Translations under genes and position numbers: made by a program
In this document: positions 13,532 through 32,360 of the stretch, in pieces
Layout: every line of letters begins with the position of its first letter
Position numbering within the stretch: the first letter of the stretch is position 1
The notes under the pieces: generated by a model
The model's database searches: none
What the model was told of the DNA's origin: nothing
The model's input: the letters and a program-made list of their open reading frames with translations, nothing else
From: Gammaproteobacteria bacterium
Lineage (GTDB): Bacteria > Pseudomonadota > Gammaproteobacteria > Chromatiales > Chromatiaceae
Length of the DNA stretch: 37,205 nt
Reading direction: 5' to 3'
Assembly (NCBI GenBank): GCA_007135625.1
Contig: SLIM01000028.1
Span: forward strand, 1 to 37,205

Positions 13532-15265
13532 ATGCAGCAGCACCCTACTCCACACGGCGCGACGCTCACCGGCCCCGCCGCTGATCCCGCCGCCCCCTTC
13601 GCGCAGCACTACCGCCGCCCGCAAGAACACCCCTTTCGTGCGGAAGATCGGGAGCGGGTCACGCTGCTGCTGGGGGGCTTGACCCGCAGCCAGGATCGCC
13701 TGCTGCAGGCGGTTTTTGAGGGGCAGGGCTATCGTGCCGCCCTGTTACCGCTGCCTACCCGCGCCGACCTGCAAACCGGCAAGGAGTATGGCAACAACGG
13801 CCAGTGCAACCCCACCTATTTTACTGTCGGTAGCTTGGTTCGCTATCTGATTCGGCTGCGCGATGAGGAGGGGATGGGTACCCAGCAGATTCTGCGTGAC
13901 TACGCCTTTCTTACTGCGGGCAGTTGCGGCCCCTGTCGTTTCGGGATGTATGAGTCGGAGTACCGCCTGGCCCTGCGTAACGCCGGTTTTGAGGGTTTTC
14001 GGGTGTTGATCTTTGAGCAGAGTGGTGCCATCACCCAAAACGGCGAGCGCGGGGGGCTGGAGATCACCCCGGAGCTGTTCCTCGGACTGCTGAATGCGAT
14101 TCTCATTGGTGATACCCTGAATGCGATCGGCTACCAGGTGCGCCCCTACGAGCGTGAGCCCGGCGCACTTCAGCGCACCATGGAGGCGTGTATCCGCCTG
14201 TGCGAGGAGGCGCTGCGCAACCCTCCGCAACCTGCTGCGCCCGGCTTGGTTGCCCACCTCCTCGCCCGCCTGTTTAACCTGAAGCAGCCGCAACACGCTG
14301 CACTGCTCCTCGATCGACTGCGCAGCGGTTACTACTGCGACACCTTGGAGCGCTGCCGCGAGCTGCTGGAGCAGCAGGTCGAGGTCGATTACACCCGACC
14401 GCGTCCGCTGGTCAAGATCACTGGGGAGTTTTGGGCGCAGACTACCGAGGGGGAGGGGAACTACCATATCTTTCGCTTTTTAGAGGGGGAAGGGGCCGAG
14501 GTGCTGGTCGAGCCGGTGGCCACTTGGGTCGACTATCTGCTTCACGACATCGACCTCAAACTGCGTGATCGGCGCGGCCTTCCCGCCTCTCTCGACGGCA
14601 CACCCTACCCGACCCGCACGCTGCGCAGTATGCTCCAAGGATTCAGGCGGCGGGTTGCGGTGCGCCTGGCGCAGTGGGCCTTTGTGCGTGAGCATGAGCG
14701 CATTCGCCACGCCGCTGGCGGTACTACCCATCCGCTGGTGAGCCAGCACGAGCTGCAAGCGCTCGGTCACCCCTACTATAACCCCCGCGCTACCGGTGGT
14801 GAGGGCTATCTGGAGGTGGCGAAGAATATCTACTACTTCCATCGCCACCTCGCGCACATGACGCTCTCCCTCAAGCCCTTCGGCTGTATGCCCTCGACCC
14901 AGTCGGACGGTGCCCAGGCGGCGGTGATGGCGCACTATCCCGACCTTATCTACCTGCCGGTGGAGACCTCCGGGGAGGGGGAGATTAACGCCTACTCGCG
15001 GGTGCAGATGGCCCTTGGCGAGGCCAAGAGTCGCTGTAAAGAGGAGTTTCGCGCTGCGCTTGCGCAGAGTGGCCACACCCTGGAGGAGATTCGTGCCTAC
15101 GTCGCGGCCCACCCGGAGCTGCGCCGTCCGCTGCAACCGATTCCCCACCATCCCGCAACCATTGGCCGCGCCGCTAATTTTATCCTCCATGTTGCGGCCC
15201 GTATGGCGAACGATCCGGCGCGGCACGCCACCACGCCCGGCCAATTTGTCCCCCATGATGCCTAA
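13532..15265 (+). CDS. BCR/HAD-family (2-hydroxyacyl-CoA dehydratase / benzoyl-CoA reductase-like) component, uncharacterised
   Basis: Cys-containing motifs typical of this family: GKEYGNNGQCNPTYFTVGSLVRYL, AGSCGPCRFGMYESEY and LKPFGCMPSTQSDG. It lies 26 nt upstream of the double-ATPase activase-type gene. Confidence 0.6.
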   Translation: MQQHPTPHGATLTGPAADPAAPFAQHYRRPQEHPFRAEDRERVTLLLGGLTRSQDRLLQAVFEGQGYRAALLPLPTRADLQTGKEYGNNGQCNPTYFTVGSLVRYLIRLRDEEGMGTQQILRDYAFLTAGSCGPCRFGMYESEYRLALRNAGFEGFRVLIFEQSGAITQNGERGGLEITPELFLGLLNAILIGDTLNAIGYQVRPYEREPGALQRTMEACIRLCEEALRNPPQPAAPGLVAHLLARLFNLKQPQHAALLLDRLRSGYYCDTLERCRELLEQQVEVDYTRPRPLVKITGEFWAQTTEGEGNYHIFRFLEGEGAEVLVEPVATWVDYLLHDIDLKLRDRRGLPASLDGTPYPTRTLRSMLQGFRRRVAVRLAQWAFVREHERIRHAAGGTTHPLVSQHELQALGHPYYNPRATGGEGYLEVAKNIYYFHRHLAHMTLSLKPFGCMPSTQSDGAQAAVMAHYPDLIYLPVETSGEGEINAYSRVQMALGEAKSRCKEEFRAALAQSGHTLEEIRAYVAAHPELRRPLQPIPHHPATIGRAANFILHVAARMANDPARHATTPGQFVPHDA

Positions 15266-15291: not shown

Positions 15292-18200
15292 GTGCCTGAT
15301 CACCCCCACTCTGTTAGCGTCCCTTTTCACCTCGAACGCCGCCCGGCGGCAACCGCCAGCCCCCGCTTTCGCCCCACCGAGCGCTATCCGCAGGGGGTGA
15401 TGATCGGCCTTGATGTTGGCTCCACCACCGTTAAGGCGGTGGTTATCGACCCTCAGCACGATACCATTTTGTGGCGTGACTACCAGCGCCACGAGACCCG
15501 TCAGGCGGAGAAGAGTCTGGAGTTCCTGCTGCGCATTGGGCAGGCGCTGCCCGCTCTACCGCACAGTGCGATTCGCCTGTTTCTCACCGGCTCCGGCGGG
15601 ACGACCCTACTCCCCCATATCGGAGGGAAGTTCGTTCAGGAGGTGAATGCCGTCTCGCTCGCCGTCGAGCATCTCCACCCTGAGGTGCAGGGGGTCATTG
15701 AGCTGGGCGGGCAGGATGCCAAGATCATCATCTTTAAGGAGAGCGAGAGCGGGAAGAAAAAGATTCCTTCGATGAATGATAAGTGCGCCGGCGGCACCGG
15801 GGCGGTGATCGACAAAATTAGCGCTAAGTTGCGCATTCCCCCCGAGCAGCTCGGCCAGATGGGCTACCACGGCCTCGCCCTGCACCCGGTCGCGGGCAAG
15901 TGCGGGGTGTTTGCCGAGACCGACATTAACGGCCTGCAAAAGCAAGGGGTTCCCGCCGATGAGCTGATGGCCTCGCTGTTTGAGTCGATCATTCAGCAGA
16001 ACCTCTCGGTGCTGACCCGAGGCCATACCCTGCGCCCTAGTGTCCTGCTGCTGGGGGGGCCAAACACCTATATCAAAGGGATGCGGGAGTGCTGGAGCCA
16101 CCACTTGGCGCAGATTTGGGATGAGCGTGGGGTTCCCCTCCCCGACCCGAGCCGCGAACCCGATGAGTTTATTATCACCCCCGACGATGCCCAGTATTTT
16201 GCCGCTATCGGGGCGGTGCTGTTCGGGCAGCAGGAGGTGAGTGAGCATCCCGATCTCGGAGGTTACCTCGGCCCGCAGGGGCTGGAACACTATCTGGCGC
16301 ATGGCCGCGCCGCTGCTCGCGGCGGTGGTAGCAGCGGGTTGTGGCGTAGTCGCAAGGAGCTGGCGCGTTTTCTTGACGAGTACCACCGCCCTCCCTGGCA
16401 GTCGCAACGCCTCGCCCACGGCCAGACCCTGCGTGCTTTTATCGGTCTGGATGGCGGCTCCACCTCGACCAAGGGTGTGCTGCTCAATGAGAAGCTGGAG
16501 GTGGTCGCCAAGGCCTACCAGCTCTCCTGTGGGAACCCGATTGAAGATACTATTGAGATTATCGACTCTCTCGCCCGACAGGTGGATACCCAGGGGGCGA
16601 CCCTGGAGATCCTCGGGGTCGGCACTACCGGCTACGCTAAAGATACCCTTAAAGAGGTTTTGCAGGCCGATAGCGCCTTGGTCGAGACGGTCGCCCATAC
16701 GAAGGCGTGCCTCCACTTTTTTCCCGGCAGTGATGTGATTATTGATGTCGGTGGTCAGGATATTAAGCTGATTACGCTAAAAGATGGACGGGTTAAGGAC
16801 TTTAAGCTCAATACCCAATGTTCGGCAGGCAATGGCTATTTTCTCCAATCGACGGCGCAAGGGTTCGGCTTCGATATCCGCAATTATGCGGACATCGCCT
16901 TTAGTGCCGAGTCGATGCCGGAGTTCGGCTACGGCTGCGCCGTTTTTCTGCAATCTGATATTGTTGATTTTCAACGCAAGGGGTGGCAGGCTAATGAGAT
17001 TATGGCCGGACTGGCCGCGGTGCTGCCGAAGAATATCTGGCTCTACGTCGCCCAGATCCCCAACCTGACCAAGCTCGGGCGGCGCTTTGTGCTGCAAGGG
17101 GGTACCCAGTACAACCTCGCTGCGGTGAAGGCCCAGGTGGACTTTATCCGCTCCCGCTTTCGCTCTAGTGAGCAGGGGTGTGAGGTGATCGTCCATCCCC
17201 ACTGTGGCGAGTCGGGGGCGATTGGTGCCGCACTGGAGGCCCACCGCCTCTACCAGGAGCAGGGACACCGCAGCAGCTTTATCGGTCTCGAACGGGTGCG
17301 CCAGATCCGCTATATTACCCACCGCAGCGAAGAGACCCGCTGCCACTTCTGTAAAAATGCCTGCCTGCGTACCTTTATCGACGTAACCACCACCCTCCCG
17401 AGCGAACTACCGCCCCCCACCCTGCGCGATGAGGGACGCACCAGCCGTTGGGCCTCGAAGATCGCAGTCCAGCCCGGTCATCAGCGGATGATTGTGGCTA
17501 CCTGCGAAAAGGGGACGGTTGAGGATCTCGACCAGATGCGCCAGATTAAGGCGGGACTCGATGAGGTGCGCGAGCGCAACCCCAACTTCGTCGCACTCGC
17601 CGCTAAAGCTGCTTTTCAATCGGTTACCGTCGAGAGTGTCGCTGATCCACTACCCGATCCGCAGTTTTTTCATGTTTTTGGCAAGCGGGCGATGCAGCAG
17701 CGGCGCAGCGCAATGGAGCGCCGTCGCAAGGTGCGGATCGGCATTCCGCGAGTTCTCAACCTCTACTCTCTCGCCCCTTTCTTTATCGGTTGGTTTAGCG
17801 CTCTTGGTGTACCCTACAAAAATCTTGTTTTTTCCGACTACACCGACCAAGAGCTTTACAAGCGCGGGGCCAAGCGCGGCAGTATCGACCCTTGCTTTCC
17901 CAGTAAGTTGGGGATTCCCCATGTGCATGATTTGGTCTATCGCCACCACCAGCGCAAACCGCTGACCCATATCTTTTTTCCGATGATCGATTCGATCCCC
18001 TCAATGCTCCACGGGGTGCTCGATAGCCGCGCCTGTCCAACCATTACCGCCACCCCGGAGGCGACCCATGCCGCTTTTATCAAGGAGGGGGAGTTCTTCA
18101 GCGAGCACAATATTCTCTTCAAAAAGACCTTTCTCAACCTTGCAGAACCGCCGCTGTGTGCCGATCAGCTCTACCGTGATTGGGGTACTGAACTCGGGAT

Positions 18201-18804
18201 CAGCCGGGGGGAGTCACGACGGGCGGTTGCTGCCGGATTGCAGGCGTTAGAGGCGTTCTACCAAGGGCTGCGTCAGCGGCAGTATGCTACCCTGGAGATG
18301 CTGGAGCGTGAGCGGCGCATCGGCGTGGTGCTGCTGGGTCGTCCCTACCATAACGATCCCGGTATCAATCATGAGATTTTGGAGGAGCTGCAACGCCAGG
18401 GCTATCCGATTCTATGGCAAGATGCTCTGCCGCTAGATTCCGCTCTGATGCAGCGTCTGTTTGGTGAGGAGCTGCGTTTGGGAGTGCTGGAGTCGCCGCT
18501 GTCGATTGATGATGTCTGGAAAAATAGCTACTCGGAGAACACTTCGCGCAAGCTGTGGGCTGCGAAGTTTACGGCTCGCCATCCTAATCTGGTTGCGCTG
18601 GAACTCTCCTCGTTTAAGTGCGGACATGATGCCCCGATCTATACCGCAATTGAGGAAATTATCGAGAGTTCGGGAACCCCGTACTTCTGTTTTAAGGATA
18701 TCGACGAGAACAAGCCGAGTGGCTCGATTAAGATTCGTATCGAGACTATCGCTTACTTTCTTTATCGCTATCGGGAGCAGCTTTATGGGGGGGTGGAAGG
18801 GTAA
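15292..18804 (+). CDS. Acyl-CoA dehydratase activase-related protein: two BcrAD/BadFG-type ATPase domains plus a C-terminal 'CoA enzyme activase' (DUF2229-like) domain
   Basis: Two ASKHA ATPase starts: MIGLDVGSTTVKAVVID and FIGLDGGSTSTKGVLLN. Both are followed by ..GGQD(A/I)K.. and CAGGTGA / CSAGNGYF motifs. The C-terminal half has RIGIPRVLNLYSLAPFF..., DPCFPSKL and LSSFKCGHDAPI. The start may instead be GTG/ATG at 15397/15400. Confidence 0.8.
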   Translation: MPDHPHSVSVPFHLERRPAATASPRFRPTERYPQGVMIGLDVGSTTVKAVVIDPQHDTILWRDYQRHETRQAEKSLEFLLRIGQALPALPHSAIRLFLTGSGGTTLLPHIGGKFVQEVNAVSLAVEHLHPEVQGVIELGGQDAKIIIFKESESGKKKIPSMNDKCAGGTGAVIDKISAKLRIPPEQLGQMGYHGLALHPVAGKCGVFAETDINGLQKQGVPADELMASLFESIIQQNLSVLTRGHTLRPSVLLLGGPNTYIKGMRECWSHHLAQIWDERGVPLPDPSREPDEFIITPDDAQYFAAIGAVLFGQQEVSEHPDLGGYLGPQGLEHYLAHGRAAARGGGSSGLWRSRKELARFLDEYHRPPWQSQRLAHGQTLRAFIGLDGGSTSTKGVLLNEKLEVVAKAYQLSCGNPIEDTIEIIDSLARQVDTQGATLEILGVGTTGYAKDTLKEVLQADSALVETVAHTKACLHFFPGSDVIIDVGGQDIKLITLKDGRVKDFKLNTQCSAGNGYFLQSTAQGFGFDIRNYADIAFSAESMPEFGYGCAVFLQSDIVDFQRKGWQANEIMAGLAAVLPKNIWLYVAQIPNLTKLGRRFVLQGGTQYNLAAVKAQVDFIRSRFRSSEQGCEVIVHPHCGESGAIGAALEAHRLYQEQGHRSSFIGLERVRQIRYITHRSEETRCHFCKNACLRTFIDVTTTLPSELPPPTLRDEGRTSRWASKIAVQPGHQRMIVATCEKGTVEDLDQMRQIKAGLDEVRERNPNFVALAAKAAFQSVTVESVADPLPDPQFFHVFGKRAMQQRRSAMERRRKVRIGIPRVLNLYSLAPFFIGWFSALGVPYKNLVFSDYTDQELYKRGAKRGSIDPCFPSKLGIPHVHDLVYRHHQRKPLTHIFFPMIDSIPSMLHGVLDSRACPTITATPEATHAAFIKEGEFFSEHNILFKKTFLNLAEPPLCADQLYRDWGTELGISRGESRRAVAAGLQALEAFYQGLRQRQYATLEMLERERRIGVVLLGRPYHNDPGINHEILEELQRQGYPILWQDALPLDSALMQRLFGEELRLGVLESPLSIDDVWKNSYSENTSRKLWAAKFTARHPNLVALELSSFKCGHDAPIYTAIEEIIESSGTPYFCFKDIDENKPSGSIKIRIETIAYFLYRYREQLYGGVEG

Positions 18805-22494: not shown

Positions 22495-22646
22495 TTATGA
22501 TGCATTGTAGCAAATCTGCCCCTCTTGGAGGGCGGCATTGAGGTCGCCTTGCGCTCCGATGCGCTCCCACATTATGATGCATTGTAGCAAATCTGCCACT
22601 CTTGGAGGGCGGCATTGAGGTCGCCTTGCGCTCCGATGCGCTCCCA
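22495..22646. repeat. Tandem direct duplication (2 x 75 bp, period 77 bp, one mismatch) of the 3' end of the sulfotransferase-like gene
   Basis: ttatgatgcattgtagcaaatctgcc[c/a]ctcttggagggcggcattgaggtcgccttgcgctccgatgcgctccca occurs at 22495-22569 and again at 22572-22646. The second copy supplies the stop codon and the last 24 codons of the ORF 22572-23108. Confidence 0.95.
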
Positions 22647-23108
22647 AAAGTGCGGAAATTCGTTCTGGGCGGTTTCCAATTGCAGGGTCATGCAGTGGCT
22701 TTTGTCGCGCAGGAAGTGGCGGATATTTTCGGTGACGGTGTGAAGGTAGTCGGCAGCGAGTTGGGTCGGGTCGTGGGCTGTTTCGTCGCTCATCAGAATG
22801 CCTTGTCGGTAGGCGCGGAGGATGCCGTGTTCTAGCTCGCTGCGACGGCGGAAGCTGGCAATGGTGGCCTCGGGTTGCCGCTGAAGGTGGAGATAGAAGG
22901 CGTGGTCGCCGTAGCGCTGATGCAGGCGACCGAGCAGCCAGCAGAGACGATTGTCGGCTTCAATATGGTTGGCTGGGTAGTCGAGTCGGGCGGCTCCTAG
23001 AAGGCGGGCGCGGCTTTCGTGGGCGGCGCTGTAGTTGCTGATGTGGGAGCAGGCGCGAATGAAGGTGGAGCTGCCGCAGCGGCCACTGTTCAAAATGAAG
23101 ATATTCAT
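22572..23108 (-). CDS. Small P-loop-like protein, tentatively sulfotransferase-family
   Basis: The N-terminal MNIFILNSGRCGSSTFIRAC resembles the PAPS 5'-phosphosulfate-binding loop of sulfotransferases. Its start overlaps the upstream stop (ATGA at 23105-23108). The functional call is weak. Confidence 0.5.
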   Translation of the reverse strand: MNIFILNSGRCGSSTFIRACSHISNYSAAHESRARLLGAARLDYPANHIEADNRLCWLLGRLHQRYGDHAFYLHLQRQPEATIASFRRRSELEHGILRAYRQGILMSDETAHDPTQLAADYLHTVTENIRHFLRDKSHCMTLQLETAQNEFPHFWERIGAQGDLNAALQEWQICYNAS

Positions 23109-24940
23109 GGTTTGAGGGTTCCGTCAAGGAGTTGCTGCCAATTGCTTTGCTGCTGTGGGTAGGCGGCGATGGCGGCGGCGATGCGGGCCTTGTGGGGGGC
23201 GAGCTGGTGGGGGCTGTTAATGAGGGTGTAGCCGGCTGCCTGGGGGGCGAAGTTCTGTTCGATGTTATCAAGAAAGTGGGTGATTGCGCTGCACGCCGAG
23301 GTGAACTGGGGGGCATTCCACCACCAGTTATCTGGGTTGTGAAAGAGCGTGCGCAGGGCGGTGAGGCGCTGTTGCAGTTGCTGCTGTTTGGCGTTGTAGC
23401 GCTCGCTTAGGTCTGCTTCGGTGCGCCCAAGCTGGGCGTGAATTTGCGCTGCGCTCCACGCCCTTTGCGGCGCGTCCTGGTAGAGGGCCTCGATGGTGAA
23501 GAGGGTGAGGTCGCCGAGAAATTGGCGTGCAAACTCTTCGCTGATGTCGGTTCGTTGGGCGCTGCGCTGGATTCCGTGACGGTATTCGGCGCGGCCTAGG
23601 GTGCTGAGGGTGCGGCGGTGGAGCATCGGGAGGTTGGCGCTGCAGAAGGTGGCGCTGGCGGTGGCGCTGAGGATCCGTCCGAGCAGCGGCCCGGCCATGC
23701 GCAGGCGGAGGTGGGCAAGGGGGATGTACCACTGCAGGGCGTTACTGCGTAGGGTGTAGTTGCCGGTGTAGAGGGTGCGGGCGGGTTGCAGGGTGGCGGC
23801 GAGGGGTTGGTGGTGGTAGTAGGTGCTGCGGGTGGGGTGTTCGCCGTCGAAGAAGCGGTCGAGTTGCTGCGCGAGGTGGGTGAAGGTGGCGCTGTGGGGG
23901 TGGCAAGCGTGCAGGGGACAGAGGTAGGGCTGTGGCTGTGGGCGGGTGGGGAGGCCGAAGAGGTCGGCGTGGTCGTGGTAGTCGGCGTGGCCGGGGGTGG
24001 GGTGGTGGTGGAAGGTGCAGTGCTGTTCGGGGTGGCTGGCGGCGAGTTGCTGGAGCAGGGCGTGCAGGTCGAGTAGCAGGTTGTTGGCCATTACGGCGGG
24101 GGCGACCGGGGGGTCGCCGACCACCTTGCCGGTGAGTACCTGGAGTTGGGGGTGGTCGCGGAAGAGTTGGTCGAGGTGGTGGAGGTAGTTGAGGGCGTAG
24201 GGTTCCGCTTCGCCGTCGGCGCTGCGCAGGCGGATGCGAAACTCTTGGTCGCTGTCGAGAAAGTGAAACAGCCGGGGGGTGCCGTCGCAGCGGTGGTGCC
24301 AGAGCCAGAGGTAGGCGAGGTTGCGGGTGGTGGAGGCCCCTTTGTGGCCCATGCGTTGGGGGGTGAGGGCCTGTAGGCTTGGCTCCAGGGCGGCGCGCTG
24401 GCGGGGGGTGAGGCGCTCCAGTTCGGCCCACTGCTGGGGGTGGTCGAGGTGGTGGGTGGTGACTCCGGCGGCGCTGGTTTGGGCGGCGATGGCGTGGTGC
24501 TGGTGGCGGTTGGCGGGGTCGCGGGAGTCGTCAATAAGCACCACTTCGACCAGTGGGTAGCGGCCTTGTTGCTCGCCGCCGTAGGCGTAGCAGTGGCAGA
24601 GTTCGAGCAGGCTGGCGAGGCAGTTGCGAAGCTGTTGCGGGCGGTCGGCGACCGGGATGAGCAGGGTGATGGGGTGGCGGGGCTGCTGCTGTGCGGCTCG
24701 CCATTGCTCCCAGAGGCGGTAGAGCTGCTGCTGCTGGGGGAGCTGGTCGGGAGCAAAACCGTGATTCCAGAGTGCCGCTTCGCTGGCGGCGCGGGCGTGC
24801 TGAAAGAGGGTGGCGCAGTCGCGCTCCTGGAGGTGGGCGAGTGCTGGGGTGGTGGCGCAGTGGTGGCGGAGTTGGGGGCAGTCGTGTGGGTTCATCGGCG
24901 GCGGTAACGTTGCAAAAGGGGGAGTGGGTGCGCGGCTCAT
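23105..24940 (-). CDS. GT-A (family-2-like) glycosyltransferase-domain protein with long His/Gln/Pro-rich N- and C-terminal regions, function unknown
   Basis: GT2-type core: ITLLIPVADRPQQLRNCLASLLELC...LVEVVLIDDSRDP...MGHKGASTTRNLAYLWL...LFHFLDSDQEF (DxD). This motif selects the correct frame among several open frames here. ATGA overlaps are present at both ends. Confidence 0.65.
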   Translation of the reverse strand: MSRAPTPPFATLPPPMNPHDCPQLRHHCATTPALAHLQERDCATLFQHARAASEAALWNHGFAPDQLPQQQQLYRLWEQWRAAQQQPRHPITLLIPVADRPQQLRNCLASLLELCHCYAYGGEQQGRYPLVEVVLIDDSRDPANRHQHHAIAAQTSAAGVTTHHLDHPQQWAELERLTPRQRAALEPSLQALTPQRMGHKGASTTRNLAYLWLWHHRCDGTPRLFHFLDSDQEFRIRLRSADGEAEPYALNYLHHLDQLFRDHPQLQVLTGKVVGDPPVAPAVMANNLLLDLHALLQQLAASHPEQHCTFHHHPTPGHADYHDHADLFGLPTRPQPQPYLCPLHACHPHSATFTHLAQQLDRFFDGEHPTRSTYYHHQPLAATLQPARTLYTGNYTLRSNALQWYIPLAHLRLRMAGPLLGRILSATASATFCSANLPMLHRRTLSTLGRAEYRHGIQRSAQRTDISEEFARQFLGDLTLFTIEALYQDAPQRAWSAAQIHAQLGRTEADLSERYNAKQQQLQQRLTALRTLFHNPDNWWWNAPQFTSACSAITHFLDNIEQNFAPQAAGYTLINSPHQLAPHKARIAAAIAAYPQQQSNWQQLLDGTLKP

Positions 24941-26640
24941 CTTCCCGACTGGTAGTTCGGGTAGATCTCGCGGTCGATGGGGATTTCAATGAGGTTAATG
25001 GCGTGGTGCAGATCGGCTTGGGCGAGGAGCTGGTCGATTGCTGCCGGTTGCTCGATGCGGTAGTGGTGGATGCCGAAGGCTTGCGCAAGGGTGGCGAAGT
25101 CGGGGTTGATGAAGTCGCAGTCGATAAAGCGGCGCTGGTAGTGTTGCTGTTGGTTTTTGCGAATCAGCCCCATGGTGCCGTTGTTGAGCAGCAGGATGTT
25201 GAGCGGGATTTGGTAGTTGACGGCGGTCATTAGCTCCATCGCGCACATTTGAAAGCCGCCGTCGCCGAGAATGGCGAAGGCGGTGCGGTCGCTGGCGAGG
25301 CGGGCGCCGATGGCGGCGGGGATGGCGTGGCCGAGGGAGGAGATGCCGCTGTTGGGGTAGTAGCGGTTGGCGCTGCTGATGCGCAGGAAGTTTTGGGCGA
25401 AGATGATGTTGTCGTCAAACAGCATGATGTCGCTGGGAAAGTGTTCGCCTAGGCGGTTGAAGAGGTATTCGATGAGGCGAATGGCGGCGGGGGGAGTGCG
25501 CTTCTCGACCGGCGGCTTGGCGGCGGGTGCGGGAGCTGGCTGGTCGTGGTCGCTGCCGCTGCTCCAGTGCAGGGCGCTGCCGGGGGCGGCGGGGGGCGGC
25601 TGCTTGGGGGGCATGTCGTGGAGCCGGTCGAGGAGGGCGTTGAGGATGCCGGGGATGTCGCCGTAGAGGGCGAGGTCGGCGTGGTAGAGGCGTTCGAGCT
25701 GCTCCGGGTCGTGGTCGATCTGAATGATCTGTTTGCCGTTAAGGAGCTGGGGATCCCAGAGGTAACTGGTCCGTTCGTTGAAACTGGCCCCGAGGAAGAG
25801 GAGCAGGTCGGCGTGGTCGATCAGGTAGCGGCGGGCGCGTCCGTCGGAGGTGACCCCGAGGGTGCCGAGGGCAAGTGGGGCGTGTTCGTCGATGGCCCCT
25901 TTGGCTTTGAGGCTGGTGGCGACCGGGATGGCGTGGCGCTGGCTGAGGGCGGTGAGGGCGGTGCTGCCGTGGCGGTGGGTTGCGCCGTAACCGGCGATAA
26001 TCACCGGGCAACGCGCTTGGCGTAGGCGTTGTTCGAGTTCGCTGAGGGGGGGGAGGCGGGGGCGGCGCGGGAGGCTGCCGGGCTGCGGCAGGATGTGGTC
26101 GAGCAGGGTGCTATCAACCGCTTCGAGTTGGACGTTAAAGGGGAGGCTAAGGAGGACTGGGCCGGGGCGGGTGGCGGTGAGGGTGCGGGTGGCGCGGTGC
26201 AGGACTTGGGGGAGGTAGTCGCTGCGTTCAATCAGTTTGTGGTAGCGGGTGATGCCGCGAAATAGGGTGACCTGGTCGATGCTTCCCCCTTCGCCGCTGC
26301 TCTCTTGGAGTCCGCCTTTGCCGAAGATGTGGGTGGAGGTCTCGCCGGTGATCGCGAGGAGTGGCTGGTGGTCGGCGTAGGCGTTGGCGATGCCGGTGAC
26401 CAGATTGGTGGCACCGGGGCCGGCAGTGGCGATGCAGGCTCCGATGCGGCCGGATGCGCGGGCGTAGCCGCCGGCCATGAAGGCCGCTCCCTGTTCGTGT
26501 TTGGTGAGGATGGTGCGAATTGAGGAGCGCTGGAGCTGGTCGTAGACCGGGAGGATGTGGGCGCCGGGAATGCCGAATAGGGTGTCGATGCCGAGGCGTT
26601 CTAGGTAGCGGACGAGCAGTTCACTGACGGTGATGCGCAT
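24937..26640 (-). CDS. Thiamine-diphosphate enzyme of the acetolactate-synthase/carboligase family (accessory paralogue)
   Basis: MRITVSELLVRYLERLGIDTLFGIPGAHILPVYDQL..HEQGAAFMAGGYA..AGPGATNLVTGIANAYADHQPLL..., with a C-terminal GDGGFQMCAMELMTAVNYQIPLNILLLNNGTMG ThDP-binding motif. Start set at ATG 26640. The track ORF extension to 26748 overlaps the upstream gene. Confidence 0.85.
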   Translation of the reverse strand: MRITVSELLVRYLERLGIDTLFGIPGAHILPVYDQLQRSSIRTILTKHEQGAAFMAGGYARASGRIGACIATAGPGATNLVTGIANAYADHQPLLAITGETSTHIFGKGGLQESSGEGGSIDQVTLFRGITRYHKLIERSDYLPQVLHRATRTLTATRPGPVLLSLPFNVQLEAVDSTLLDHILPQPGSLPRRPRLPPLSELEQRLRQARCPVIIAGYGATHRHGSTALTALSQRHAIPVATSLKAKGAIDEHAPLALGTLGVTSDGRARRYLIDHADLLLFLGASFNERTSYLWDPQLLNGKQIIQIDHDPEQLERLYHADLALYGDIPGILNALLDRLHDMPPKQPPPAAPGSALHWSSGSDHDQPAPAPAAKPPVEKRTPPAAIRLIEYLFNRLGEHFPSDIMLFDDNIIFAQNFLRISSANRYYPNSGISSLGHAIPAAIGARLASDRTAFAILGDGGFQMCAMELMTAVNYQIPLNILLLNNGTMGLIRKNQQQHYQRRFIDCDFINPDFATLAQAFGIHHYRIEQPAAIDQLLAQADLHHAINLIEIPIDREIYPNYQSGR

Positions 26641-26671
26641 GGGGGAGAGTAGACTCTTTGCAATGAGGGGT

Positions 26672-27673
26672 TCAGGGTTGGCGGCGCTGGTAGATCCCTT
26701 CAACGAGGTAGAGGGGTCGCGCCTTGACCTCGGTGAAGAGGCGGCCAATAAACTCGCCTAAGATCCCCAGTGACATGAGTTGGACTCCTCCAAGAAAGAG
26801 GATGACGGTCATGAGGGAGGCGTAGCCGGGCATATCGACACCGGTGAGCAGTACCCTGGTGACGATGAAGAGGGCGTAGAGGAAGGCGAGTCCGGCGATT
26901 AGGGTGCCGATGTAGGTCCAGATGCGCAGCGGGGCGGAGGAGAAGCTGGTGATGCCGTCAATGGCGAAGTTCCAGAGTTTCCAATAGCTAAACTTACTCT
27001 GGCCGAGCTGGCGTTGCTGGCGGGTGTAGGGGATGCCGATGGTGTGAAAGCCGACCCAGGCAAAAAGCCCTTTCATAAAGCGGTTGCGCTCTGGGAACTG
27101 GCGTAGCGCCTCCACTACGCGCCGGTCGATGAGCCGATAGTCACCGGCATTTTCGGGGATAGAGACCGGGGAGAGATGGTTGAAGATGCGGTAGAACCAG
27201 CCAGCGGTGGCGCGTTTGGTGGTGGTGTCGCTGCTGCGATCTTGGCGGATGCCGTAGACCACGTCGTAGCCTTCGCGCCATTTGACGATAAACTCGGCGA
27301 TCAGCTCGGGCGGGTCTTGCAGATCGACATCCATCGGTACCACCAGGTCGCCGCTGGCGTGTTCGATACCGGCGGTGAGGGCCGCCTCTTTGCCAAAGTT
27401 GCGGGAGAGGTTGAGGCAGCGCAGGCGGGGGTCGTCGCAAATGGCGGTGAGGAGCTGTTGCAGGGTGTCGTCGTGGCTGCCGTCGTTAATGAAGAGGATC
27501 TCATAGCGTAGCGCGAGATGTTCGAGGGTCGGCTGCACGGCGGCGAGGAACGGGCGGATGGTCGCTGCCTCGTTGTAGACCGGAACCACCAGCGAGAGCA
27601 GCGGGTCGGCGGGGCGCTGCGGGTCGCCAAGCAGGTTATCGATCTGCGGGTGGTCGCTCAGCAGTGACGGCAT
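26672..27673 (-). CDS. Polyprenyl-phosphate glycosyltransferase (GtrB/ArnC/DPM1-like GT2 with two C-terminal TM helices)
   Basis: LSLVVPVYNEAATIRPF...EILFINDGSHDDT...SRNFGKEAALTAGIEHASGDLVVPMDVDLQDPPELI..., followed by TM helices IWTYIGTLIAGLAFLYALFIV and LMTVILFLGGVQLMSLGILGEFIGRLF. Confidence 0.88.
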   Translation of the reverse strand: MPSLLSDHPQIDNLLGDPQRPADPLLSLVVPVYNEAATIRPFLAAVQPTLEHLALRYEILFINDGSHDDTLQQLLTAICDDPRLRCLNLSRNFGKEAALTAGIEHASGDLVVPMDVDLQDPPELIAEFIVKWREGYDVVYGIRQDRSSDTTTKRATAGWFYRIFNHLSPVSIPENAGDYRLIDRRVVEALRQFPERNRFMKGLFAWVGFHTIGIPYTRQQRQLGQSKFSYWKLWNFAIDGITSFSSAPLRIWTYIGTLIAGLAFLYALFIVTRVLLTGVDMPGYASLMTVILFLGGVQLMSLGILGEFIGRLFTEVKARPLYLVEGIYQRRQP

Positions 27674-27679
27674 GCGGCG

Positions 27680-28447
27680 TTACACCTTGGCCGGGTGGTA
27701 GGCCCCGGCGTTGCGTCCGACATGGGCGATCCCTTCGCCGCCGTCAACCACTAGGATCTGGCCGGTGATGAAGTCGTTGGCGAGTAGCTGCAGCAGCGCT
27801 TGGGCGATATGGTCGCCCTCCCCTTTGCGCTGTAGCGGAATGGCCTCAATCCGCCACTGGAGATAGTCGGCGCTGCGGCTCTCGGCGGGAAGGGTGACTC
27901 CGGGGGCGATACCGTTGACGCGAATCGCCGGGGCGAACTCTAAGGCGGCCATGCGGGTGAGTTCGGCGAGTCCCTTTTTGCTCAACAGGTAGGCGGCATA
28001 ACTAAACTGGTTGTAGGCGATCTTGTTATCCAGAATGTTGATGATGTTGCCGCGCTGCACTTGGCGGGCGAAGGCTTGGATCAGAAAGAAGGGGGCCTTG
28101 AGGTTGAGGGCGAAGAGCTGGTCAAAGTCGTCGCTCTCGGTGTCGGCGATGGTCGCCTGGGTGTAGCCGGAGGCGCTGTTGACTAACACCTCCAGGTTGC
28201 CCATGCGAACGGCGACCGCCGCCATCCAGGTGGGGAGCGCGGGGGTGTCGCTAAGGTCGAAGCCGAAGAGTTCGCAGCGTACCCCGAACGCCTCAATCTC
28301 GCGTCGGGTCTGCTCCGCCTCCTCCTCGGAGGAGAAGTAGTGAAGGGCGATGTCGTAGCCCGCACGGGCGAGGGCGAGGGCCAGCTCGCGACCGAGTCGA
28401 ATGGCCCCTCCGGTGACCAGTGCGGCACCGCGTCTGGGTCTACTCAT
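27680..28447 (-). CDS. Short-chain dehydrogenase/reductase, pteridine-reductase/FolM-like subgroup
   Basis: AALVTGGAIRLGRELALALARAGYDIALHY (TGGxxRLG), VNSAS, and catalytic Y-LLS-K in SYAAYLLSKKGL. 255 aa. Confidence 0.8.
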   Translation of the reverse strand: MSRPRRGAALVTGGAIRLGRELALALARAGYDIALHYFSSEEEAEQTRREIEAFGVRCELFGFDLSDTPALPTWMAAVAVRMGNLEVLVNSASGYTQATIADTESDDFDQLFALNLKAPFFLIQAFARQVQRGNIINILDNKIAYNQFSYAAYLLSKKGLAELTRMAALEFAPAIRVNGIAPGVTLPAESRSADYLQWRIEAIPLQRKGEGDHIAQALLQLLANDFITGQILVVDGGEGIAHVGRNAGAYHPAKV

Positions 28448-28860
28448 GGGGTATCCCCTTCGCCGTTGTTGGGGAGGTAGGGGCGGTAGTGTTTGCTCTT
28501 GCGCTTGAAGTTGCGCTGGACAATGACCCCTTCAATCTGCCACACTTTGTCGTGCAGCTCAATTGGGTAGTAAGCGGGGTTGAGGGGGAGCAGTCGCGGC
28601 GGCTGCCCCGGCTCCTCGCGCCATTGGCGAAACCAGCGCTCTTCGCCGACCGTGATGACGACGTAGGCACCGCTGGCGCAGCGCTGGGAGGGTTCGATGA
28701 CAATCACGCAGTTTTGGGGAAACTCCGGTTCCATGCTGTCGTCTAGCACCTGTAGGGCGTACAACTCGTTGTAGCTGCAATTTTTGAAGTCGGCGGATTC
28801 GTGCATAGTGAAAATACCCAAAAGTGGCCATGCAGAGGGGGATCCCGGCGCGATGAACAC
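28444..28860 (-). CDS. Stand-alone S24 (LexA/UmuD-type) peptidase-fold protein without a DNA-binding domain
   Basis: WPLLGIF...ELYALQVLDDSMEPEFPQNCVIVIEPSQRCASGAYVVITVGEERWFRQW...LLPLNPAYYPIEL...IEGVIVQ aligns by eye to UmuD (..[22 protein letters not shown]...GEFTVKKL..LIPMNSAYSPI..VFGVVIHVV). The Ser codon is AGC at 28735-28737. The start is uncertain: GTG 28860, ATG 28806 or TTG 29079. The stop overlaps the SDR start (ATGA). Confidence 0.6.
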   Translation of the reverse strand: MFIAPGSPSAWPLLGIFTMHESADFKNCSYNELYALQVLDDSMEPEFPQNCVIVIEPSQRCASGAYVVITVGEERWFRQWREEPGQPPRLLPLNPAYYPIELHDKVWQIEGVIVQRNFKRKSKHYRPYLPNNGEGDTP

Positions 28861-29067
28861 GTGAGGATGGAACTCTGCCGCAAGGGCCGTTACAATCTGC
28901 TGCGACCACCAGATGTGGTCTTTGGCGAAAAACCCAAGTGGCAGGAGAGAGCATATCCCCTTAGTGGCTCCCCTGCAACTATCCAAATCAAGTGGCCACT
29001 CTCCAGCGCGTGCGATTGTCGGCGTGGCGCGGCCACTCCTATAGGCTACCGAAGAGGTTCCCCTCCG

Positions 29068-29256
29068 ATGCCCGAACAAAATTCTAGTACTTTTCTTTTT
29101 GGTAATCTAATTCTCGGCATTGCCTTGCTTTGCTTGCTTTTTATGGAGGCGCTGTGGGCTAGGCTCGGCTCGCTAGCGATGGTGCTGTGGGTGGTGCTGG
29201 TGGCGGTGGGGGTCAGTCTGATTATGAAATCTATGAATCAATCGGGGGATCTGTAG
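29068..29256 (+). CDS. Possible small two-TM membrane protein (62 aa)
   Basis: This is the 3' part of track ORF 28801-29256. From ATG 29068 (GAAGAGG 10 nt upstream) it reads MPEQNSSTFLFGNLILGIALLCLLFMEALWARLGSLAMVLWVVLVAVGVSLIMKSMNQSGDL. There are two clear hydrophobic helices. No homology argument is available. Confidence 0.35.
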   Translation: MPEQNSSTFLFGNLILGIALLCLLFMEALWARLGSLAMVLWVVLVAVGVSLIMKSMNQSGDL

Positions 29257-31067: not shown

Positions 31068-32360
31068 TTACTCCTGCTGCAACCACGGCGGTGGGGCTAA
31101 CAACTCGCGTACCGAGCGCTGCTCCACGGCGGGTGGTGGCGGTTCGCGGGGCGGTGCTGCCGCCGGGGCTTGGGGTAACTGTGGGGGGCTACTGCGTACC
31201 GGCGGGCCGGAGCTGGTGTGCAAAAAGGCGACCAGTGCCTGCTGCTCGGCGGCGCTGAGTCCTAGCGGGCGGAGCAGTTGGCTACGCCGCTCCAGATGGA
31301 GTGAGGGGCGACCGTCGGGGTCGCTCCCTCCGCGATCATAAAAGGCGATGACCTGCTCCAAGGTGGTGAAGGCCCCATTGCGCATGTAGGGTGCGGTGTG
31401 TGTCAATTCGCGCAGGCTGGGGGTGCGAAAGGCCCCGCGTTCGGTTTCGCGCCCGCTGACTAGCCAGCGTCCGGGGTCGCTGCGGGTAGAGGGCAGGGCC
31501 GCGTTGGCGACACCGGCTCGCCGTAGGCGATAGCGGTAACGGATCTGCTCTTCCGCTTCGAGCCGCCACAACTCGGCAGTCGGTACGGCGGTAACGTGGT
31601 AGCGCTGGTCGGAGAGCAGCGGGCCGTGGTGACAGCGGCTGCAACCGGCCTTGCCTTGAAACAGTTGCATTCCCTGCACCTGTTGCCGATCCAGGGCGCT
31701 GCGCTCGCCGCGCAGGTAGCGGTCGAGCGGGCTGTCGGCGCGTGCCAGGCTGCGGCTGAAGGCGGCTAGTGCCTCCCAGCTCTGGGCGGCGCTTGGGCGT
31801 GATGAGGTGCCGAAGGCGGCGCTAAACAGCTCCCGGTAACCGGGGAGCAGGGCGAGGCGTGCCTCTAGCAGTGGGTCGTGGCTGTTGAGCACCAGTGCGT
31901 CATGGGCGTGGTGGGCGATCTGCTGCTCCAGGGAGGTGGCGGAGCCATCTGCGTTCCAGGCGCGGTAGTGGGCGACCGGGAGCAGTCCGGGGGCGACCCG
32001 CCAGCTCGTCTCGCCGTCACCACTCCAGCCGCGTTCGGGGCGGTGGCAGTCGGCACAACTGCGCTGGCCATCGCCGCTTAGGCGTGGGTCGAAAAAGAGT
32101 ACGCGCCCGAGTGCCGCCTGTTGCGGGTTGACCGTTGGCAGCGTCTCTAACGGGAGCAGTTGCGGGGATTCAACGGCAGATGGCGGCCCTTTGACTTGCG
32201 GCCCACAGCCGCTGACCAGCAGCACTCCTGCAATGATCAGCAAAAGCGGCGCGGCGCGGCGGCGATATGCTATTCTGCTCCTCACTCTTCTTACCAGCAG
32301 CACTCCTGCGGCGATAAGCAAAAGCGGTGCGGCGCGGCGGCGATATGCGGTTCTGCTCAT
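31068..32360 (-). CDS. Di-haem cytochrome c peroxidase / MauG-family protein, probable lipoprotein
   Basis: Two CxxCH motifs (CADCHRPERGW and CSRCHHGPLLSD) plus FRTPSLRELTHTAPYMRNGAFTTLEQVIAFYDRGG. Lipobox: LLVSGC. An alternative start at GTG 32285 gives a single clean signal peptide. Confidence 0.88.
   Translation of the reverse strand: MSRTAYRRRAAPLLLIAAGVLLVRRVRSRIAYRRRAAPLLLIIAGVLLVSGCGPQVKGPPSAVESPQLLPLETLPTVNPQQAALGRVLFFDPRLSGDGQRSCADCHRPERGWSGDGETSWRVAPGLLPVAHYRAWNADGSATSLEQQIAHHAHDALVLNSHDPLLEARLALLPGYRELFSAAFGTSSRPSAAQSWEALAAFSRSLARADSPLDRYLRGERSALDRQQVQGMQLFQGKAGCSRCHHGPLLSDQRYHVTAVPTAELWRLEAEEQIRYRYRLRRAGVANAALPSTRSDPGRWLVSGRETERGAFRTPSLRELTHTAPYMRNGAFTTLEQVIAFYDRGGSDPDGRPSLHLERRSQLLRPLGLSAAEQQALVAFLHTSSGPPVRSSPPQLPQAPAAAPPREPPPPAVEQRSVRELLAPPPWLQQE
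32215..32358. repeat. Direct duplication (about 66 bp, period 78 bp, about 59/66 identical by my alignment) of the signal-peptide coding segment
   Basis: accagcagcactcctgc..agcaaaagcgg.gcggcgcggcggcgatatgc...tctgctc occurs at 32215-32280 and 32293-32358. It encodes AYRRRAAPLLLI(A/I)AGVLLV twice. Confidence 0.85.

Follow-up and report, generated by a model that had tools for sequence, protein, structure and literature searches.

Acetohydroxyacid synthase (AHAS) is marked by two signature motifs, RFDDR and RQWQ, the last arginine of the former binding the carboxylate of the acceptor. Among sulfotransferases that depend on 3'-phosphoadenosine-5'-phosphosulfate (PAPS), a GRCGS[ST]T sequence corresponds to the 5'-phosphosulfate (5'-PSB) loop and R-x7-S to the 3'-phosphate (3'-PB) motif, and in the S24 peptidases the position of UmuD Lys97 is that of the general base. 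Predicted relatives of all three groups are brought together in a block of six minus-strand genes in a 37,205-nucleotide stretch of DNA from a gammaproteobacterium of the Chromatiaceae (positions 1 to 37,205 of contig SLIM01000028.1, assembly GCA_007135625.1; hereafter the window). From the first gene to the last, the block encodes an S24 peptidase-fold protein of 120 aa (28444–28806), a short-chain dehydrogenase/reductase (SDR) of the pteridine reductase/FolM-like type (27680–28447), a predicted polyprenyl-phosphate glycosyltransferase of family GT2, similar to GtrB, ArnC and PgfS (26672–27673), a 567-aa thiamine diphosphate (ThDP) enzyme of the AHAS superfamily (24937–26640), a soluble 611-aa protein with a predicted GT-A fold (P611; 23105–24940) and a 178-aa protein with a predicted minimal sulfotransferase fold (P178; 22572–23108). 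The explanation favoured here for the whole, with fair confidence, is a lineage-specific juxtaposition of three modules rather than one pathway, combined with the mechanism proposed below for the last three genes (the triad).

Neighbourhoods of the six genes

The neighbourhood survey of P611, in which the six window proteins were compared by tblastn with 83 loci including flanks of up to 10 kb, recovered homologues of the S24, SDR or GT2 proteins within 10 kb of P611 in none of them (0/83), and the other five block genes were likewise absent from all 80 loci of close GtrB-like relatives. Nowhere among the P611, GT2 and SDR loci compared did all six families occur as neighbours, and in the metagenome-assembled genome (MAG) GCA_011390365.1 the S24–SDR pair is located on contig 66 and the ThDP–P611–P178 genes on contig 5. 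The view of the earlier note that the six genes constitute one functional set is therefore not supported: the neighbourhoods split into three unrelated modules, namely the S24–SDR pair (module 1), the GT2 gene (module 2) and the triad (module 3), and, since each has a separate conserved neighbourhood, the block is best described as three modules joined in this lineage.

The triad is conserved in the P611 loci, with the ThDP gene placed directly upstream of P611 in 71 of the 72 evaluable loci and with order, strand and adjacency maintained across many species. At least 301 GTDB species carry a member of the P611 family. The best 80 loci all belong to the Gamma- and Betaproteobacteria, and most of them are named as lineages of sulfur-, iron- or hydrogen-oxidisers, the lineages including Thiohalomonadaceae, Sedimenticola, Thiodiazotropha, Thiolapillus, Sulfuricella, Thiobacillus, Hydrogenophilus and Gallionellaceae. 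The species with a P611 homologue also include symbionts of clams and tubeworms as well as autotrophs from groundwater. The module is present in the cultured Thiolapillus brandeum, Endothiovibrio diazotrophicus and Parasulfuritortus cantonensis, and also in Thiohalomonas denitrificans, known here only from a MAG assigned to that cultured species. The triad is a putative self-contained cytoplasmic module.

Clustering of the ORFs (open reading frames) flanking P611 identified only two recurrent neighbours beyond the triad, a Methyltransf_24 gene and a gene for a PaaK/F390-synthetase-like adenylating enzyme. The position directly downstream of P611 (loci L004–L083) was occupied by P178 in 44 of 67 loci, by the PaaK-like gene in 16, by neither in 7 and by both in none, so that the PaaK-like gene never occurred with P178. 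The names of the loci with this PaaK-like variant include Sulfuricella, Sulfuritalea, Gallionellaceae, Rhodocyclaceae and Methyloversatilis. In 30 loci, all of them of the P178 type, P178 is immediately followed by the Methyltransf_24 gene on the other strand. Neither a Methyltransf_24 nor a PaaK-like gene was found elsewhere in the window.

Within the window, the six co-directional minus-strand ORFs were confirmed in the ORF list and are packed as tightly as had been described, with 4-nt ATGA overlaps or gaps of no more than 31 nt throughout. The S24/SDR overlap (28447–28444) was read directly in the sequence, while those of ThDP/P611 (24940–24937) and P611/P178 (23108–23105) were taken from the ORF coordinates; the SDR–GT2 gap is 6 nt and the GT2–ThDP gap is 31 nt, given a ThDP start at ATG 26640. 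This start was adopted because the N-termini of the homologues agree with it (MKIKVSDL...). In the ORF list before revision of the starts, the ThDP gene spanned 24937–26748 and the S24-like gene 28444–29079. The beginning of the latter had been set at 28860, which proved to be about 54 nt too far upstream: ATG 28806, giving 120 aa, is the most likely start as judged from the homologues of 117 aa, which align from residue 1 over the full length at 66–68% identity. The family assignments made from the letters alone were upheld by Pfam and NCBIfam (Peptidase_S24, adh_short, Glycos_transf_2 and three TPP_enzyme domains), as was the placement of the block between ilvIHC and an HD-GYP gene: ilvI, ilvH and ilvC all exceeded the NCBIfam cut-offs, and the gene on the other flank encodes a GAF + HD/HD_5 protein.

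The counts of internal promoters and terminators predicted in the block equalled the shuffle expectation and none stood out, so that the scan carries little information. The six genes are probably co-transcribed in the source organism, a single transcript being plausible because no convincing internal terminator or promoter is present. When the window and five triad loci were scanned with Rfam, the only matches were tRNAs in one of these loci (L009); no riboswitch was detected ahead of the ThDP gene. PADLOC gave no match with any of the six proteins, and the block is therefore not a known defence system.

Proteins of the triad and their proposed chemistry

The ThDP enzyme matched the N, M and C domains of TPP_enzyme in Pfam with E-values of 1e-40, 5e-32 and 2e-34, respectively. 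On the acetolactate synthase model acolac_lg (TIGR00118) it reached 356 bits against a cut-off of 538, compared with 860 bits for the neighbouring ilvI, whose best model gave 966 bits; the identity between the two window proteins is only 29%. Its orthologues keep the HEQ motif (70/71), GDG...NN (71/71) and FNER (70–71/71), while RFDDR and RQWQ, both of which occur in the window ilvI, were found in none of the 71. A housekeeping or spare AHAS was considered for this gene and ruled out by the TIGR00118 score and the motifs. The enzyme is a predicted catalytically complete member of the AHAS superfamily and not an acetolactate synthase equivalog. Its nearest relative in the PDB is 'BbmA' (8x3x, E 4e-90; roughly 40% identity by reading of the alignment), followed by AHAS at about E 1e-68. 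FNER aligns with RFDDR of AHAS and, because its arginine occupies the position which in AHAS binds the carboxylate, the acceptor would be a 2-oxo acid.

P611 gave a confident AlphaFold2 (AF2) model (pLDDT 89.9, pTM 0.91), and all 23 of the PDB structures matched by Foldseek with E<=1e-3 were GT-A glycosyltransferases, including hyaluronan synthase, GlfT2, TarP, chondroitin polymerase and mannosylglycerate synthase, which at the level of the modelled fold bears out the GT-A-like assignment made previously. Besides the GT-A core, the protein has a helical region at the N-terminus, another conserved region and a bundle of helices at the C-terminus. The motifs IPVADRP, DDS and DSDQ are conserved in 79–80 of 82 members; DSDQ, found in 80/82, represents the DxD motif, with D229 and D231 invariant in the alignment (A1). 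The only matches to curated models were to DUF6271 (E 1.4e-4; 21 vs 25 bits) and MftF (E 1e-3; 18 vs 280 bits), with no significant match to PF00535 or similar GT2 sequence models, and comparison of the P611 and P178 profiles with PDB sequences produced only chance matches (E 0.39 or worse). No database record corresponds to the exact sequence of the window P611. There are more than 1700 homologues, and a profile search of 1.84 billion representatives matched only 380 proteins; the family is therefore an isolated branch of GT-A. Taken together, P611 is a predicted GT-A (GT2-like) glycosyltransferase.

Distant P611-like proteins (22–30% identity) were inspected in four contexts (L169, L170, L171 and L173). 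One of their genes is followed by a PaaK-like gene with a UDP-galactopyranose mutase gene nearby, one adjoins an AHAS-like ThDP enzyme and a GT4–Methyltransf_24 fusion, and one lies near a PMT_2 transferase. The contexts contain Glf, epimerase/dehydratase, GT1/GT4 and PMT_2 genes, as in clusters of the glycan or natural-product type, and a sugar-transfer role for P611 is supported by this position of its distant relatives among sugar-handling genes. A radical SAM/SPASM gene was present nearby in all four, which hints at peptide- or cofactor-type substrates in the wider P611 family.

For P178 the AF2 model (pLDDT 91.4) was matched by Foldseek to the sulfotransferase domain of CurM (TMq 0.71, E 3.8e-5), TPST, 3-OST and SgdX2. 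Among 54 members, 49 contain the 5'-PSB-loop motif GRCGS[ST]T and 51 contain HLxR-x7-SF, which includes the 3'-PB motif, so that the suggestion of a PAPS-loop-like, sulfotransferase-like protein gains support from both the fold and the two motifs. The window protein itself matched no Pfam or NCBIfam model. On the strength of the structural model, P178 is a predicted minimal PAPS-dependent sulfotransferase.

From these assignments the following chemistry can be proposed. The ThDP enzyme would decarboxylate a 2-oxo acid and ligate the remainder to a second carbonyl, probably that of another 2-oxo acid, giving an alpha-hydroxy-beta-keto acid or an acyloin. P611 would then transfer a sugar from a nucleoside diphosphate (NDP) sugar to this product or its derivative through the DxD-containing GT-A site, by analogy with mannosylglycerate synthase, which acts on small hydroxy acids, and P178 would carry out a PAPS-dependent sulfation of the product. 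In many genomes Methyltransf_24, whose gene the window lacks, might add a methyl group, and in the PaaK-like variant an adenylate-dependent chemistry would take the place of sulfation. The likely product would be a sulfated glycoside in which the sugar is attached to a hydroxy-keto acid derived from the ThDP reaction. The claim in its full form is made only tentatively: that the triad produces a new glycoside of this kind, sulfated and in many cases methylated, as a signature of chemolithoautotrophic Gamma- and Betaproteobacteria, with an adenylate-dependent variant where the PaaK-like enzyme replaces the sulfotransferase.

Several observations weigh against the proposed three-module, sulfated-glycoside reading. 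The triad includes neither a nucleotide-sugar synthase nor a transporter; P611 matches GT-A structures over the core only (TM ~0.3, E ~1e-5) and contains conserved Cys and His residues for which a plain glycosyltransferase has no need, so that other chemistry is possible; Sulfotransfer_3 was matched in just one of 22 P178 members and at E 0.01, which leaves P178 with no significant Pfam sulfotransferase match; and the literature on BbmA and CsmA and their PDB codes yielded nothing relevant, the BbmA reaction not being retrieved. With gaps of no more than 31 nt, the six genes may yet act together in this organism, and all six are C-biased at the third codon position, with a skew, calculated per gene as (G-C)/(G+C) at that position, from -0.32 to -0.67. 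The same features, together with the start/stop overlaps across all six genes and the unconvincing internal terminator and promoter signals, speak for a single dedicated six-gene pathway, in which a branched or keto-modified, possibly sulfated sugar would be assembled on a polyprenyl carrier or a pterin would be glycosylated, the two products suggested in the earlier note. Such a pathway is very improbable. The triad was without S24, SDR and GT2 neighbours in 83 of 83 loci, close GT2 relatives were without all five partners, and for the two closest of the SDR homologues looked up the S24–SDR pair is found at another place, beside folK; the ilvC gene, outside the block, is similarly skewed (-0.38), so the codon bias is not specific to the block; and no partner of the GT-C, flippase or GtrA kind was found among the scanned window ORFs. 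Of the two suggested products, the polyprenyl-linked glycoconjugate loses its basis with the GtrB-like gene, and the glycosylated pterin with the SDR gene, as neither is a conserved partner of the triad. The six-gene pathway having failed, the block is not worth pursuing as a unit.

Two other schemes keep the triad as the unit and assign it a different chemistry. In one, the ThDP enzyme would work as YerE does and attach two carbons of pyruvate to an NDP-4-keto sugar, and P611 would transfer the resulting branched sugar to a surface or protein acceptor, with sulfation and methylation following. An AHAS-like enzyme that is not AHAS, the resemblance of P611 to GT2 enzymes of polymers and glycans (GlfT2, TarP, hyaluronan synthase, chondroitin polymerase) and the glycan-type clusters of its distant relatives with Glf, epimerase/dehydratase and PMT_2 would all fit, but the conserved neighbours of the triad do not include an NDP-sugar 4,6-dehydratase, a nucleotidyltransferase or an exporter, and the conserved arginine of FNER appears to suit a carboxylate acceptor better than an NDP-sugar, which makes the branched sugar unlikely. 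Quite unlikely, too, is the other scheme, with P178 as an 'activating' sulfotransferase similar to CurM-ST and SgdX2, for which sulfate would serve as a leaving group, the PaaK-like enzyme adenylating the same intermediate in the variant loci. CurM-ST (TMq 0.71) and SgdX2 are indeed among the best structural matches, and the two genes exclude each other at one position (both in 0/67); however, the functional groups concerned differ (hydroxyl vs carboxyl), there is no conserved partner that would carry out an elimination or a decarboxylation, and Methyltransf_24 goes only with the P178 type, which suggests different end products instead of an equivalent activation.

If the sulfated glycoside of a hydroxy-keto acid proves to be the product, it would represent a metabolite of chemolithoautotrophic Gamma- and Betaproteobacteria such as a new compatible solute, a redox cofactor or a signal. 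Identification of the triad product would assign a function to more than 1700 'hypothetical proteins' and could reveal a metabolite specific to chemolithoautotrophs.

The other two modules, base composition and repeats

The 120-aa S24-like protein matched PF00717 (E 6e-16 to 2e-15) and, in agreement with the previous description, lacks a DNA-binding domain; it is a stand-alone protein. Proteins of 117 aa with 66–68% identity to it precede the SDR orthologue in two other loci (L084, 3578–3931; L086, 5646–5999). Alignment with UmuD indicated that the nucleophilic serine is kept (DDSM), while the Lys97 position is occupied by arginine; the Ser–Lys dyad is not preserved, since the window protein and the two homologues alike have Arg in place of Lys. 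The SDR scored highest in NCBIfam on PRK09134 (223 bits, cut-off 281) and on the pteridine reductase model (192 bits, cut-off 288), and many of its homologues, 60–70% identical, carry the JGI name 'pteridine reductase'. In two homologues the SDR is fused to HPPK (PF01288). The pair of the 117-aa S24 gene and the SDR gene, followed by a convergent HPPK gene (folK), accompanies the two closest SDR homologues looked up (70% and 68% identity), and the loci with such an arrangement are L084, L086 and L087; a third homologue looked up (P0269, 63%) had neither an S24 nor an HPPK neighbour. The fusion of SDR homologues to HPPK and the position of the pair next to folK point to a conserved S24–SDR pair with a putative tie to pterin/folate metabolism.

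The GT2 protein matched PF00535 (E 6e-30) and, over its full length, PgfS (E 8.5e-89; 298 bits vs a cut-off of 500) and ArnC (E 1.9e-57; 195 bits vs 529), and has two hydrophobic segments at the C-terminus. It has hundreds of relatives at 53–67% identity, 80 loci of which made up the GT2 neighbourhood survey, and their recurrent neighbours were a class-I methyltransferase gene (58/80) and a GtrA-like gene (22/80). The reported lack of a GtrA partner was confirmed, no GtrA-like flippase or GT-C transferase being found among the scanned window ORFs. The gene, predicted to encode the synthesis of a polyprenyl-phosphate sugar, is thus apparently an orphan in the window, where the methyltransferase and GtrA-like partners usual for its relatives are missing.

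That the composition of the block is distinct, as had been noticed, was evident from both the GC skew and the skew at the third codon position. The GC skew of the plus strand rises to 0.3–0.42 over 23.0–26.5 kb, compared with ~0–0.1 nearby, and the coding strand of the ThDP, P611 and P178 genes (23000–26600) is extremely rich in C and A. At the third codon position the skew was -0.62 in P178, -0.57 in P611 and -0.67 in the ThDP gene, followed by -0.46 in GT2, -0.39 in SDR and -0.32 in S24, while among the flanking genes it was -0.38 in ilvC and -0.12 in ilvI. None of the 80 homologous loci reaches the values of the triad genes, the lowest there being -0.47, -0.40 and -0.51. This base bias has reshaped the protein sequence of P611: in comparison with the family, His and Pro are doubled and Lys, Glu, Asp and Gly depleted, and the window protein is the most divergent member of the alignment (mean identity 42% vs roughly 47–56% for the others). 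The 'low-complexity arms' attributed to P611 in the earlier note find their explanation here. The regions in question match conserved columns of the family and fold confidently, and they only look like arms of low complexity because the bias has pushed conserved regions towards His, Gln, Pro and Leu. Foreign DNA, an expression-linked choice of codons and a local mutational bias are all possible origins.

A tandem duplication had been reported at the end of the block with a length of 75 bp; it is present (22495–22646), with a unit of 77 nt instead. Tandem Repeats Finder gave a period of 77 and 2.0 copies with 98% matches, there being a single mismatch, and by direct reading the duplicated unit repeats the last ~75 nt of P178 including the stop codon. 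It may be a recent slippage event or an artefact of assembly, for example from a strain-level single-nucleotide polymorphism; the latter is considered because the length of the unit equals 77, a common k-mer size of de Bruijn assemblers.

Other repeats were noted along the window. A second tandem duplication (32215–32358; 78-nt unit, 1.8 copies, 89% identity) lies in frame at the 5' end of a gene for a di-haem cytochrome c peroxidase and duplicates the signal-peptide-like segment AYRRRAAPLLLI.AGVLLV. A 57-nt x 5.2 array with related periods of 72 and 18 nt extends over 1353–1791 and overlaps the ORF at 1105–2073, and a 7-nt x 12 array (CGAGGTG) is located at the right end of the contig (37085–37169). 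Among the other genes of the window, 15292–18804 encodes a 1170-aa CoA-enzyme-activase-like protein with two ATPase regions of the BadF/BcrAD type and DUF2229, and just upstream of it a 577-aa ORF (13532–15265) had no Pfam match.

Comparison with described systems

The block matches no characterised pathway, as had been stated from the sequence alone, and the triad is not explained by any characterised pathway, by the models of Pfam and NCBIfam, by the elements of Rfam or by models of defence systems; nor did the literature on DUF6271 and on combinations of these enzyme classes with sulfur oxidisers contain a description of it. Two of its families, P611 and P178, have no Pfam or NCBIfam model. 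On the other hand, all three enzymes come from well-known superfamilies, and the module, a small tailoring operon, is common and not unique to the window.

The GT2 protein resembles its counterparts in the gtrABC, Arn and Pgf systems in the PF00535 domain, the full-length alignment with PgfS and ArnC and the two C-terminal hydrophobic segments, but it scores below the equivalog cut-offs, and the GtrA-like flippase, the GT-C transferase and the methyltransferase of its relatives are missing from the window. With AHAS (IlvI/IlvB) and BbmA, the ThDP enzyme shares the three-domain architecture, the catalytic glutamate of HEQ, GDG...NN and an arginine in the motif equivalent to RFDDR; it differs from AHAS in the absence of RFDDR and RQWQ and in the sub-cut-off score on TIGR00118, and the only small-subunit gene nearby, ilvH, pairs with ilvI and not with the ThDP gene. 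P178 is similar to the PAPS sulfotransferases CurM-ST, TPST and SgdX2 in fold (TMq 0.56–0.71), in the 5'-phosphosulfate loop and in R-x7-S, while it is shorter (178 aa vs about 195–330 aa), has no significant Pfam match and is replaced by a PaaK-like ligase in about a quarter of the loci.

In the mycofactocin system, too, a GT2-type enzyme (MftF) and a methyltransferase (MftM) decorate a small molecule, P611 has a faint match to MftF (E 1e-3), and its distant relatives have radical SAM/SPASM genes close by; in contrast to that system with its radical SAM/SPASM enzyme MftC, neither a conserved radical SAM/SPASM gene nor a precursor peptide accompanies the triad. The GT-A enzymes acting on hydroxy acids, that is the GT78 mannosylglycerate synthase and the mannosyl- and glucosyl-3-phosphoglycerate synthases, are represented among the Foldseek matches of P611 by 2bo7, 2y4j, 2wvm and 3kia. 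No relation to them was detected at the sequence level, the fold match is weak (TM ~0.3), and P611, with ~600 aa, has beyond the GT-A core a large conserved region, to which the helical bundle at the C-terminus and the invariant residues C308, H311, H322, C341, H347 and H368 belong. What they have in common with P611 is a soluble protein with a GT-A fold and a DxD motif, and the acceptor of P611 could, similarly to theirs, be a hydroxy acid, namely the product of the adjacent ThDP enzyme.

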